Assembly (NCBI GenBank): GCA_965249725.1 | Contig: CBDFMQ010000001.1 | Location: 32,001 to 96,000 of the forward strand | Direction: 5' to 3' | DNA: 64,000 bases | From: Longimicrobiales bacterium | GTDB lineage: Bacteria; Gemmatimonadota; Gemmatimonadetes; Longimicrobiales; Gaopeijiaceae | Part shown: in pieces, positions 21,001 through 64,000 of the stretch | How the letters are laid out: every line of letters begins with the position of its first letter | Numbering within the stretch: position 1 is the stretch's first letter | Program-made: the position numbers

Positions 21001-24000
21001 GACGCATCATGAGTGGACGTAGACCCCCGAGACCCGTTCTGGCTGTCATCGTACTAGCGCTCGCAGGTGCTGTCCTTTTGGTTCGGATTCCTCCGGGACG
21101 GCCCGGCCGGCGACGGCCTATTGGTTTCCGGCACGGTAGAGGCTACGGAGGGCCAACTCGCCTTCCAGTCGGCAGGTCGAATTCTGGAGGTGAACGCGAG
21201 CGAGGGCGATCGGGTGACCGCCGGCCAGCAGTTGGCCACCCTCGACCGGTCCGAACTGGATGCCCGCCGAGCCCAGCTTCTCGCTCAGCTCGCTGCGGCT
21301 CGCGCCGGTCTGGCGGAGCTTCGGAGCGGATTCCGCGAGGAGGAGGTGGCTCAAGGGCGTGCCGGCCTCCGGGCTTCCGAGGCGCAGGTAGCCGACGCCG
21401 AGCGTGATCTGGCCCGCGCCCGGCTCCTGCACGACGGTGGGGCCGTGAGCGAGGAGGCGTTGGAGAAGAGCGAGCTCAAGTTGAGCCTGGCTCGTATCCA
21501 AGCCGACGAACGCGGGGAGGCGGTTCGCCTTCTCGAGTCAGGGCCCCGTCCGGAGAGGGTCGAGGCTCAGGCCGCCCAGGTGGCCGCGGCAGAGGCCGGG
21601 ATTCGCGTCGTGGACGCCGCCCTGTCCTTTGCGGCGATCACGGCTCCCTTCGACGGCGTGGTGACCGTGAAGCACCGAGAGCCGGGTGAGACCGCTCCGC
21701 CGGGGGCACCCGTCCTGACTCTTATGAATCCGGACGATCGTTGGGTACGCATCTACGTGCCGGAAGACCGGATCGGTCGGGTGAGCCTGGGGCAGGCGGC
21801 CACCATCACCTCCGACAGCTATCCGGACCGAAGCCACGAGGGGCGGGTGACCTTCATCGCTTCCGAAGCGGAATTCACCCCGAAGAATGTCCAGACGCCT
21901 GAGGAGCGGGTGAAGCTCGTCTATGCCGTGAAGGTCCAGGTGGTGGGCGACGGGGGGTACGAACTCAAGCCGGGGATGCCTGCCGACGTGCGACTGGACG
22001 ACGGCCAACTGGCCGAAGGGCAGCCTGGCGACCCGGGCGCGACTCCGTGAACGATGAAACCGGTCCGGCGGTCCGGACCGACGGGCTGACCCGATCGTTC
22101 GGGCCCCTGGTCGCTGTCGACGGCCTATCCCTCGAGGTAGCGAGGGGAGAGCTGTTTGGCCTCGTTGGCCCCGATGGCGCGGGAAAGACGACCACGCTGC
22201 GCATGCTGGCCGGCGTCCTGCCCCCGACGAGCGGGCGGGCATGGGTCTTCGAAACGGACGTCGGTGAGGACCCGGAGGCCGCTAAGGCCAAGACCGCCTA
22301 TATGTCGCAGCGCTTCGGCCTGTACCATGACCTGACGGTGAGCGAGAACCTGGACTTCTACGCCGATCTGTTCGGTGTTCCCCGATCGCAGCGACCGGAG
22401 AGGCTCGCTCGACTGTACGAATTCTCGGGCCTCGCTCCCTTCCGGGACCGCCGCGCCGAGGCTCTCTCCGGTGGCATGAAGCAGAAGCTCGGTCTCTCCT
22501 GTGCCCTGATCCATCGCCCGAGTCTGCTTCTCCTGGACGAGCCGACCTTCGGGGTGGACCCGATCTCACGACGCGATCTCTGGCTGATCATCCACGAGAT
22601 GGTCGACGAGGGCGTGACGGTGGTGGTGAGCACGGCCTACATGGACGAGGCCGAGCGATTCGATCGGCTGGCGTTTCTCGAGGCGGGCAAGACCCTCTCC
22701 GTGGATACACCCGATGCACTGCGAAAGGGCTTGTCAGGGCGGCTGCTTTCAGTGTGGGCAGGTGATCGCTCGCGGGCGGCCCGTGACGTGTTGAGAGCGA
22801 CCCCGTCCGTCGCCAGTGCCTCTGTGTTCGGAGACCGCCTGCACGTAGTGGTCGACGACGCGGAAGCGGGTATGGATGTCGTCCGGGCCGCCCTCGGCGC
22901 GGAGGGGTTCTCCGAGGTGGACGTAGACACCATCGCGGAGCCCTCGCTCGAGGACGTGTTCATGGATCAGGTGGAAGGAACCGGCGGAGGAAGCGGCGGA
23001 GATGGCGATGACATCGTCTGACGACTCCCCGCGAGGCGGAGGGCCGGTCACCGACGAGCACGCCGTCACGGCGAATGGTCTGACCTGTCGTTTCGGCGAT
23101 TTCGTGGCCGTGGACCGAGTCTCTTTCGAGGTGAGACCCGGCGAGATCTTCGGGTTCTTGGGACCGAATGGGGCCGGAAAGACGACCACGATCAAGATGC
23201 TCACCGGGCTCATTCCTCCCACCTCCGGCGAGGGTCGTGTCGCGGGTCTCGACGTGGGAACGCAGCGCCCGGCCATCAAACGCCGCATCGGATATATGTC
23301 CCAGCTGTTCTCTCTCTACGCCGACCTGACGGTGGATGAGAACATCCGCATCTACTACAATCGAGCGAATACAACACTCTGTGGCTTGGCATATGGCAAA
23401 CCGTTGTTTTCGCTGTCACCCCTGAATCCTCCTTTCGATGTACTGAACGGCGGCCCGGTAGGTGTCAGGAATAAGGTGGGCGTAGGTCTCCTCGACGACC
23501 TTGGTCGTGTCACCTAGCAGGGTGGCGATCACATTGAGCGGAACGCCGTCCTGGGCCAGCCATGAGGCATAGGTGTGACGGCCACTGTGTAAGGTGAGCC
23601 CGTCGCCTTCCCTTCCGTACTTGATCCCGGCCAGCTCGAAGGCGTCCTGGGTCCAGCGAGCCGAGGTGCCGGCCGCCACAGGCTGGTCCCCGCGATGAGG
23701 GCTCAGAATCAAGTACCGCTCCCCGGCATACCCTCTGCGGATGTGATCTTCGATGATCGTGACGAGGCTCTCGGTGATCGGTACGTCCCTTTCACCACGC
23801 CGCGTCTTCGGCCTCCAGGAGTAAACATCCTTTCGGGACTGTACCCGGATCAGTGGTTCGCTGCCATCTAGAAGGACATCAACGCCAGTCCTTAGATGTA
23901 GTATCTCGCCTTGGCGCAGGCCCGCGAGGAACGCAATCGCGATCATGGCGCGGTGTGGGGTCCCAATCATGCTACGATCCAGGTCCGCCCACTCCGGCGG

Positions 24001-63000: not shown

Positions 63001-64000
63001 GACTGGCTCGAGTATCCCGAGAAAGCGCCCTGGCCGTTGTAGTTCTCCGGCCCGTGACCACCTCTCTACCTGGGAACATCACTTCCGCAGTCTCATTCCG
63101 GGCCCCTCGGGCTCCTGCCACTCGCCACTCTCCAGCAGCTCCAGCGCCCGCCCCGCGATCGCCTCGAAATGCCCTGCACGGTGCCCGAGATCCCGCATCG
63201 TCTCTAGCCGCTCCATCAGTTTGTCATACGTCCCGTGCGGACAGCCCGTCAGCGTCTGCCGCGCTATACGCTCCAGCTCGCGTGGCACCAAGGCCGGTTG
63301 CCTCATTCACTCGCTCCCCTTCGGCAGCAACCGCAGCGCACCGCTTCCCGGCTGCAGCGACATCCGACGTGCCACCAGCTCGGCCATCGTGACCACCTCG
63401 TCGGATCCATCGTCCCACACTTCCACGTTCGCCATGAACGCGCCCGCGATGTCGAACAGGCCCGTCTCTACCGCGAGCAGTGCCTGCTCCACGAAGTCCC
63501 TCAGCTGACGCCACGCGATCCGGTACGCCAGTTCCTCCTCAACCCATTTCTTGCACTCATGCTGGTGGCGGTTCATGCGATGATTCCAGGGCTTCTTCTC
63601 TTGGATGATCTCGGCCACTCTCTCCACTCGCGCTTCAAGGCGGACGGGGACCTGGCCCTGTGGCGTCTCGATCGCAAACCGGACACCCCGCAGGCCGTGA
63701 TCTCCCCATATCATCTCGAAGCGGGTCCCTCCATACGCTCTGACGAGCTGCATGATCTCCGCCGCGCTCTGCTCGGGCTCGACCGTGGTGGATTCGTACT
63801 TGATCGCCTGGCTCATGCGGACACCCCCGCGTCGGTGGGGAGCGGCAAACGATCGAGGGCGTCGCCCTGGCGGACCTCCCAGCTCATCCGCCCTCCCCCG
63901 CGCTCGCCACCGACGCCTTCGGTTCGTACCCTAGAGCGTCCATCGTCGAGCTCTGCAACGCTCTGTAGTGCGCCAATTGCGCTTCCAACGAATCGAGGGT

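Follow-up and report, generated by a model that had tools for sequence, protein, structure and literature searches.

The window, a stretch of 64,000 nucleotides from a Longimicrobiales genome (G000), carries, at positions 23340..64000, a prophage with a core-to-core length of 41,407 bp, which extends past the window end and disrupts an ABC-transporter ATPase gene. The 5' half of this host gene lies at 23002..23352 on the forward strand, and the 3' half begins outside the window at C2:96757, on the contig from which the window was taken; both halves matched PF00005. The joined flanks give a single open frame, and an intact gene with the same 13-mer is present in two related genomes, G610 and G611. 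The integrase-side att junction, GAA CATCCGC ATC (23340..23352, forward strand), is composed of the host arm GAA, the 7-bp core CATCCGC (23343-23349) and the phage arm ATC, and the far junction, GAA CATCCGC TTC, was found at C2:96747, ~750 bp beyond the window end. The phage att arm runs from the core to the integrase stop (23353..23415) and bears a CCGTTG/CAACGG motif at 23401, which is found twice more at the far end of the prophage. These repeats are likely to be arm-type sites of the integrase.

The tyrosine integrase gene (23416..24684, reverse strand) was identified by PF00589, phrog_1, alignment, a structure model and Foldseek. Its start is overlapped by a gene for an excisionase-like HTH_17 protein (24656..24901, reverse strand), for which the match to PF12728 (E 7.6e-6) is slightly below the curated cut-off. 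Both belong to an arm (23351..30893) that also carries genes for a beta-clamp-like protein (26660..27796, reverse strand; PF00712, phrog_947) and for RecT and RecE, the latter being exonuclease VIII (28167..29793, reverse strand; phrog_561, phrog_412). The beta-clamp-like gene is 25% identical to the sole non-prophage match in G000 by tblastn. Further along the prophage are a CI-type repressor with an S24 peptidase (32395..33183, forward strand), contractile-tail genes for baseplate J, hub, tape measure and sheath (38534..48407, reverse strand), and head genes for the major capsid, portal and terminase large subunit (50531..59192, reverse strand).

In an alignment of 43 rows, the integrase residues R257, K293, H366, R369 and Y401 are invariant. 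The position of the box II second His is occupied by Asp (D392) in at least 90% of the rows, where most members of the integrase family have His or Trp. The integrase model (pLDDT 87) contains an N-terminal unit of three strands and a helix, followed by core-binding and catalytic domains. Its predicted N-terminal elements (E19-22, E25-31, E39-43, H49-65) match the three-strand-plus-helix definition of the lambda-like arm-binding domain given in PMC8138268, and no Pfam arm domain matched the protein. The best Foldseek match was the integrase of Tn1549 (TM-score 0.53-0.55 by query length, 17-19% identity), with the lambda integrase a close second (0.45-0.49). The extra hairpin between catalytic strands 2 and 3, a trait of the IntTn916 subgroup (Smyshlyaev 2021), was not clearly seen in the model. 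According to PMC8138268, the Tn1549 integrase cluster inserts without strict sequence specificity. As a structural observation, the first rank of Tn1549 counts against an ordinary lambda-type reading.

Sibling prophages in four genomes

The first-pass annotation described three sibling prophages in G000 that break three unrelated genes, each with a 7-bp core of its own, and this observation is confirmed. The three integrases have 417-421 of 422 residues in common (98.8-99.8% identity), and the common arm, including the beta-clamp gene, spans 7,556 bp at 98.5-98.8% identity; the CI-type repressors of the three copies are 41-71% identical. The broken genes belong to the Pfam families ABC_tran, AMP-binding and Asp_Arg_Hydrox, and open frames of 354, 910 and 379 codons run through the three sites once the host flanks are joined. 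Lying between GAW and WTC arms, and written from the integrase side, the cores are CATCCGC, CTGTGCG (C1:533203 minus and C2:5379; the reverse complement of CGCACAG) and GGCCCGG (C3:2939330 and C1:492174 minus; the reverse complement of CCGGGCC). Random pairing of cores from the GAW-N7-WTC sites of G000 would give identity with P = 0.0003. HK97-type genes had been assigned to both of the other siblings. This stood for the head genes of the C1 copy only, because there is no overlap between the end of C3 and the start of C2, which are separated by ~13.6 kb of missing sequence. Of five genomes searched for the empty hydroxylase site, none had it.

Seven further prophages were found in three related genomes (G141, G610 and G611), so that the family comprises 10 prophages in four genomes, with 11 sites in 11 genes. 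Among them is the previously reported 94% relative with a fourth core, CCCGGTG (CACCGGG on the other strand), at both ends, which is located in G141. The promiscuity is thus real, and broader than had been claimed: neither a core nor a site is repeated, and the one primary attB per integrase that characterizes lambda-like systems was not observed. All 11 sites are inside coding DNA, for which we claim no preference. Terminase, portal or capsid genes are present in the window copy, the C1 copy, the G141 prophage and four G611 stretches, and the G610 prophage has terminase only. Wider sampling (4/401 of the class, 6/314 of the family, 2/401 of the phylum and 3/12 of the genus of G611) gave no further copies, and G351 and G137 yielded integrase fragments only, with no end motif found. 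An IMG/VR search with the single integrase protein returned no relative, and a search with the integrase alignment returned a best relative of 44% identity. Several copies are present on further long contigs, up to seven on one contig. In runs X1 and X4, the summed contig depth over the phage arm far exceeds that of the host flank, a quantity that is not a copy number.

Mis-joined repeats could create false junctions, and as had been noted, the C1 copy as assembled unites the ligase end of one insertion with the hydroxylase end of another, while contigs break within the other copy. The GC-skew profile is compatible with a real end swap as well as with a mis-join. However, the same pattern occurs in three other genomes, every junction lies between unique host DNA and phage DNA, and the joined flanks agree with empty sites in relatives; the chimeric junction of G611 described below has no repeat at all. 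Mis-phasing could account for the swap in G000, but not for the cores, and we consider an assembly artefact highly improbable as the source of the pattern.

Arms, cores and end pairs

Comparison of the junctions suggests an att site of roughly 17 bp, RWGAW-N7-WTCWY, in which a 7-bp overlap with putative cut positions would lie between inverted half-sites. WTC is present in 20 of 21 host halves, followed by W at position 4 in 17/21 (background 0.42) and Y at position 5 in 18/21 (background 0.53). Arm variants are tolerated (TTG in G141, TAA in G610). In an attP-type junction on L187, a 2.4-kb metagenome contig from a relative of 66% identity, a single core appears to lie between two arms; its position, on this one contig, is deduced from the pattern. 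For the copies described here, contigs aligned at the ABC end showed neither an attP junction nor a new core.

Nine end pairs could be matched by gene. Seven have identical cores, where independent cores would agree with P = 0.0003 per pair; one differs by one letter, and one has an adjoining 57-bp deletion. The family therefore does not always show one and the same core at either end and in the target, the exceptions being in G611. In the one-letter pair of G611, the integrase end reads CGTCCAC and the far end CGCCCAC; the empty-site core was CGCCCAC in 2/4 and CGTCCAC in 0/4 of the relatives read. A second G611 end has a letter that is not found in the relatives' copies of the host gene. These two are the only clear one-letter cases, and over 1,330 bp the pair of ends that carry non-host letters is 99.7% identical. 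The pair in the glyoxalase gene was also considered as a two-letter mismatch, and this was rejected: His occupies the second site in all seven relatives read, and the junction represents a deletion of 57 bp that is in register with TTC.

Identical 7-bp copies in seven of nine pairs would also be expected from a transposase-like enzyme that makes a 7-bp staggered cut followed by gap filling. However, a tyrosine recombinase is encoded at the end, next to an excisionase-like protein, two ends bear a letter that is not from the target, and the joined form on L187 has one core between two arms. Target-site duplication thus seems very unlikely.

The core as a proposed address

What is observed, then, is fixed arms, a free core, many targets, and ends that match or nearly do so. 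From this pattern, we propose that these prophages probably form a family of temperate phages that lacks a primary attB, and in which the phage's own 7-bp core serves as the address. In our best reading, the integrase belongs to the ordinary arm-binding tyrosine recombinases of the lambda/HK022 type and behaves as if it prefers homology, the attP core differing between phages. It would bind short inverted half-sites (about WTCWY) and swap strands across the 7-bp overlap, which would have to match, fully or nearly, between phage and host, so that the phage core would act as an address. The near-matched ends, the arm tolerance and the reach of the arms to about WTCWY suggest that the enzyme is not core-blind. 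In G000, an exact GAW-N7-WTC site exists for 32% of all 7-mers, and a site within one mismatch for 93%; chance may therefore supply an exact or one-letter-off site in nearly every host genome. An off-by-one insertion would leave unequal cores at the two ends, and excision would then yield phages with host letters. In this way the core would walk, giving rise to siblings with unrelated cores and targets, and with chance sites being frequent and the phage core rewritten in mismatched cycles, no primary attB would persist.

Some results count against the core acting as an address. The strict 17-bp consensus has only 386 sites in G000, so that exact chance matches would be rare. The clear one-letter cases number just two, and the genomes compared are few and related to one another. 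Relatedness among the cores is weak (5/45 pairs within two mismatches against 1.3 expected, p 0.014; p 0.06 when G or C is demanded at both core ends), and the most different cores belong to the closest integrase pairs. Stepwise change of the core fits the latter pattern only given many cycles or homogenisation of the arms by recombination.

The fact that integrase arms 99.0-99.7% identical bear cores differing at six of seven positions would also fit insertion of the phage without homology at any RWGAW-N7-WTCWY site, the seven letters of the target overwriting those of the phage at either end in a single step. Any two cores would be joined as in Tn916/Tn1549, followed by repair, replication, or quick excision and re-entry. 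The top TM-scores of the Tn1549 integrase and the Asp in place of the box II second His are in line with this mechanism, although the lambda integrase scores nearly as high. On the other hand, an unrelated donor core was retained in none of the nine gene-matched pairs, unlike in Tn916, and where the ends are unequal, the phage-side core is just one letter away from the host core (P = 0.004 for independent cores). We therefore regard one-step overwriting as unlikely. If it were true, the phage would be re-addressed at every jump like a transposon, and the matched ends would permit clean excision and repair of the gene.

Alternatively, each lineage may long keep one core and one preferred site, new cores being rare; the one-letter differences would then be host alleles or later mutations, and the integrase arms would have been homogenised by recombination. 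A contig from run X4 reaches across the ABC junction and differs from it at 26 of 252 letters, which hints at a diverged host with the phage at the same site, albeit from one contig of depth 4.7. The retention of the same empty 13-mer in G610 and G611 and the RecE and RecT encoded by the prophages also fit stable addresses. However, no core or site recurs in the 10 prophages, and later mutation is hard to reconcile with the near-identity of the pair of ends that carry non-host letters, unless these were converted. A change of core would still be required, so this alternative differs from the walking core chiefly in rate, and we consider it rather improbable.

If the core does serve as the address, further consequences may follow for the host. 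Differing repressors would permit several siblings per cell, co-resident siblings might recombine and swap ends, and an integrase acting on near-matching ends or sites could delete or fuse host DNA. In G611, a phage-free junction at C1:145976, GAA CACTCAG ATC, located precisely at a site of this type, fuses the 5' part of a beta-barrel gene in frame to the 3' part of a regulator gene. Both parent genes are intact in relatives (G141 and G609), and their remaining halves adjoin prophage ends with the cores CCCTCAG and CCCCCAG, which form with CACTCAG a chain of one-letter steps. From these sequences, it seems that activity of the prophage family fused two host genes into one. A pairing of the G611 ends at C1:1454k and C1:404k as one site was rejected, as the two are located in different genes. 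The family may thus act as a mutagen, to which the broken genes, the exchanged prophage ends, the 57-bp deletion and the in-frame fusion of two host genes would be due.

The identity of an integrase routinely serves to predict the location of its prophage. This family appears to break that link, since seven letters of attP, and not the protein, would hold the address, which would also offer a route into new host species that lack a conserved site.

Comparison with known systems

The underlying biochemistry is already known. In HK022 and lambda, as PMC7736782 describes, a 7-bp overlap lies between short inverted arms, ~17 bp is enough, and any shared overlap works. The present family likewise has a 7-bp overlap, with predicted cut positions, flanked by inverted core-type sites. 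In lambda and HK022, however, the overlap is free only in laboratory settings, one attB being used in nature, whereas at least ten natural cores and no shared site were found here. The mv4 integrase also has a 7-bp overlap of free composition for which identity is required, together with degenerate core-binding sites, and is retargetable through an altered attP (bioRxiv 10.1101/2023.11.06.565760). Its single natural site is in a tRNA-Ser gene, in contrast to the many genes used by this family. In a phylum that is poorly tractable, the short site could be of use for directed insertion, although the integrases of HK022 and mv4 can already be retargeted through the core.

Conjugative elements such as Tn916/Tn1549 and CTnDOT also use many targets with arms around a variable centre, and, in PMC12084037, PMC2817482 and PMC8138268, are described as accepting unmatched coupling sequences and keeping the donor-derived one at an end. 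The family described here differs in that its ends match fully or to one letter, with no unmatched donor-derived coupling sequence in the nine gene-matched pairs, and its arms are not AT-rich tracts. Its members are phages by their terminase, portal or capsid genes, and the tyrosine recombinase at the end and the non-target letters at two ends set them apart from Mu-like transposable phages. The TIGER survey of Mageeney (2020) reportedly found site-promiscuous integrase clades with many sites, often within genes. The term 'site-promiscuous' is also applied to integrase clades in PMC12884075. The TIGER clades standing outside the comparison, we found in the literature no phage family with this way of life, in which near-identical integrases go with entirely different cores.

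The model of chromosome jumping ascribed to Rutkai (2006) is said to involve a slow adaptation of the integrase to new arms, whereas in this family the integrase is constant and the core alone changes. For lambdoid phages, that model derives new specificity from secondary sites and abnormal excision (PMC8074189). The closest working precedent for a core walk is, by analogy, Sa3int (phi13) in livestock S. aureus. There, as reported in PMC8649754, mismatched insertion leaves unequal attL and attR, and the excised phage has an attP with host letters and thereafter prefers that site; the primary site in hlb is left only when it is mutated, and secondary insertions are mostly unequal-ended. Unequal ends, as adaptive attP predicts, are also seen in this family, although it has no primary site, its cores are wholly different and most of its ends match. 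The family looks like the natural steady state of a supposed emergency route, known from Sa3int at mutated sites and from chromosome jumping in lambda, and one enzyme with its ten natural cores makes it possible to put this route to the test.

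Sibling prophages in the source genome

The prophage that begins in the window is 41.4 kb long, and its integrase end falls inside the window. Its integrase-side junction (window 23340-23352) reads GAA CATCCGC ATC and its far junction (C2:96747) GAA CATCCGC TTC, so that the same 7-bp core stands at both ends. Two further integrase ends and two further far ends occur in this genome (G000), and an end-motif search of G000 found no additional ones. The other two copies carry the cores CTGTGCG and GGCCCGG, written with the integrase end on the left. The three integrases have 417-421 of 422 residues in common, the three prophages share a 7,556-bp arm at 98.5-98.8% identity, and joining the host flanks restores open frames for an ABC ATPase, an AMP-binding ligase and an Asp/Asn-hydroxylase-family gene. 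The first-pass annotation had described near-identical integrases in three unrelated genes, a common 7.5-kb arm and contractile-tail genes in the window copy, all of which we found again. It had also assigned siphovirus-type genes to both siblings. This holds for the C1 copy, whose head and non-contractile-tail genes belong to other families and bear the label ‘HK97-type’. The third copy is divided between two contigs with about 13.6 kb absent between them, so that no head genes are seen in its assembled part. The repressors of the three copies are 41-71% alike, a sequence divergence that would fit co-residence. The C1 copy joins ends of different insertions, for which mis-phasing of near-identical copies is as likely as a real swap.

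A 1.57-kb insertion sequence lies within the C1 prophage (C1:518627-520198); it has several 99-100% copies genome-wide, and an 86% relative is abundant in the prophages of the related genome G611. The phage beta-clamp-like gene (window 26660-27796) shows little or no difference among the three copies and has 25% identity to its sole other match in G000; the prophage of G610 also has one. Short tandem repeats in the gene after the excisionase-like (xis) gene (window 24900-25370; C2:57018-57368) encode Ala/Trp-rich repeats, and their copy patterns differ slightly between siblings. Two neighbouring collagen-repeat genes are found in the tail-fibre region (window 35869-37947), and a 92-bp stretch occurs twice (C2:68110 and C2:68323).

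Insertions in related genomes and the attachment site

All 314 genomes of the family were searched, and the integrase occurs in six of them, G000 counted: G611 has five copies, G141 and G610 have one apiece, and G351 and G137 hold fragments. Both ends of the G141 prophage have the core CCCGGTG, and both ends of the G610 prophage, with an integrase of only 68% identity, have CTTCCAG; in G611, integrase ends and far ends are equal in number, five of each. Genes for a terminase, a portal or a capsid accompany the G141 prophage and four of the G611 stretches. The 26-kb G610 element has a terminase, and no capsid or portal match was found among its six scanned ORFs; it also carries a gene of 1,903 residues with an LPD38 domain (C4, L341:11396-17107). 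In total, there are 10 prophages at 11 host sites in 11 genes, so that the site variability is real and larger than first reported. The eight targets beyond those of G000 are MMPL, CMD-like and glyoxalase genes, a MetA-pathway barrel, a winged-helix regulator, an outer-membrane barrel and two genes without a clear Pfam family. In G141, an insertion of about 1.1 kb (C1:1618648-1619788) interrupts the 3' end of the integrase gene, and the prophage is therefore probably stuck. The integrase family is also multi-copy on other long contigs, one of which (3.5 Mb) lists seven proteins in two clusters.

The host gene identifies a far-end partner for nine integrase ends. The cores are identical in seven of these nine pairs, for which the earlier claim of identical ends stands; one pair differs by a single letter and one is altered by a 57-bp jump. 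Two cores drawn independently from the GAW-N7-WTC sites of G000 would be identical with P = 0.0003. We regard target duplication as a very improbable source of these matched ends.

WTC is present in 20 of the 21 host half-sites, a set that excludes the deleted left half of the glyoxalase site. A or T occupies position 4 in 17 of the 21 (background 0.42, p 0.0003), and C or T occupies position 5 in 18 (background 0.53, p 0.002). The bias extends beyond WTC, so the attachment site spans about 17 bp, RWGAW-N7-WTCWY. G000 contains 5,822 loose and 386 strict sites; with loose arms, an exact site exists for 32% of all 7-mers and a site within one mismatch for 93%, and each of the three G000 cores occurs unused in 1-9 places. 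Because chance sites abound, the phage would need no fixed attB. Cores differing at six of seven positions stand on integrase arms that are 99.0-99.7% identical, so either the core changes far more rapidly than the enzyme does or the arms are homogenised. Homogenised arms around long-lived fixed addresses seem quite unlikely to us. Of 45 core pairs, five are no more than two mismatches apart, versus 1.3 expected (p 0.014, and only p 0.06 under a stricter null). At the far ends (L267-L273, L338, L339, L336), the 6-8 phage letters beside the far GAW arm differ between copies and deeper DNA is conserved; this phage-side half-site may also acquire host letters.

Mismatched ends and a gene fusion in G611

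The prophage at C1:805k/853k has CGTCCAC at its integrase end and CGCCCAC at its far end. The empty site of this gene is CGCCCAC in two of four readable relatives and CGTCCAC in none of them (a fifth locus gave no match). In the glyoxalase gene, the core at the far end is the one that relatives have at this site, and five core letters are kept at the integrase end before the 57-bp jump, which is in register with the next TTC. The two glyoxalase ends (C2:286k and C2:3043k) are separated by 2.75 Mb and point in opposite directions; pieces of repeat are shared between the breaks, as an inversion within the prophage would leave them. Homology-free insertion, with both ends overwritten, is in our judgement unlikely.

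The tenth integrase end (C1:1454k) adjoins the 3' end of a barrel gene, and the tenth far end (C1:404k) adjoins the 5' part of a regulator gene. The missing halves are joined without phage DNA at C1:145976, in the order barrel 5' part, GAA CACTCAG ATC, regulator 3' part. This fusion locus (C1:145293-147500, L330) places an outer-membrane barrel in frame with an adenylate/guanylate-cyclase-TPR regulator across the att-like site, in a single open frame of at least 736 codons. Intact parents occur in relatives: G141 has the barrel, with CACTCAG, and G609 the regulator, with CCCCCAG. The prophage-end core CCCTCAG differs from either by a single letter. Two reconstructed routes agree with the order of the pieces. 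One starts from three prophages and takes two inversions between siblings plus one excision; the other starts from two prophages and takes one sibling inversion plus one reaction in which the integrase acted on an end and the barrel site. By either route, a reaction at att sites whose cores differ in one or two letters rearranged the chromosome. Repeat mis-assembly would not produce the fusion junction, and we give an assembly artefact very little credence. The fusion shows that prophage end swaps can be real, and is no proof of the swap in G000. In both one-letter cases (C1:805k and C1:1454k), the integrase end bears the non-host letter and the far end or scar bears the host core; this placement may reflect a strand bias, as seen in two cases only.

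The integrase and comparison with known systems

The predicted integrase structure (pLDDT 87) has an N-terminal three-strand-plus-helix domain followed by core-binding and catalytic domains. Foldseek ranked XerA, Tn1549 and lambda integrases highest at 17-20% identity, with the best TM-score for Tn1549, a result that assigns no subgroup (as defined in PMC8138268). Box II, at residue 392 (gene at window 23416-24684), is LGD instead of LGH or LGW in at least 90% of 43 aligned relatives. An excisionase-like gene overlaps the start of the integrase gene. The 2.4-kb metagenome contig L187, with a 66% relative, carries in order a xis-like gene, the integrase, arm repeats, GAT CGGCAGG ATC and a 19-bp far-arm motif, whose exact sequence is present in G000 solely at the three far ends. 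This is the joined, attP-type form with yet another core, whose position is read from the pattern. The arm is present in runs of three studies. A single contig of run X4 spans the ABC junction and differs from it at 26 of 252 letters. A single contig of run X5 departs from the phage sequence at 23351 and continues for 31 letters of other sequence. Each is one contig of low depth and no more than a hint.

We think it likely that the integrase resembles the lambda and HK022 enzymes, in that it requires a matched overlap and tolerates one or two mismatched letters. The arms, cores, targets, matched and near-matched ends, fusion and one attP-type contig are read directly from sequence; the homology requirement, step size, rate and excision of these copies are inferred. 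Mismatched cycles would hand host letters to attP, as has been demonstrated for Sa3int, so that the address would drift. The phenomenon is explicable by known chemistry put to unusual use.

Mageeney 2020 reportedly surveys site-promiscuous integrase clades. Our literature search, covering few subscription papers and, beyond the papers cited here, listings and the openings of abstracts, found nothing on these prophages themselves. Nor did it find a phage family in which the arms are fixed, the core is matched yet variable and a primary site is lacking; such a family may already be described in that survey or in its supplementary material. Promiscuous integrases are mentioned without site detail (PMC12884075, PMC10111431) and a chromosome-jumping model is cited (PMC8074189). 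HK022 allows an arbitrary overlap if it is shared, at a site reducible to 17 bp (PMC7736782), and the same is true of mv4 (bioRxiv 2023.11.06.565760); Tn916 retains a donor-derived coupling sequence (PMC12084037), and IntDOT tolerates five letters without a match (PMC2817482). At alternative sites, the two ends of Sa3int prophages differ, and the phages set free from them carry an adapted attP (PMC8649754). Our prophages differ from a one-site phage and from a Tn916-type element, and behave as Sa3int adaptation on a lambda-type site.
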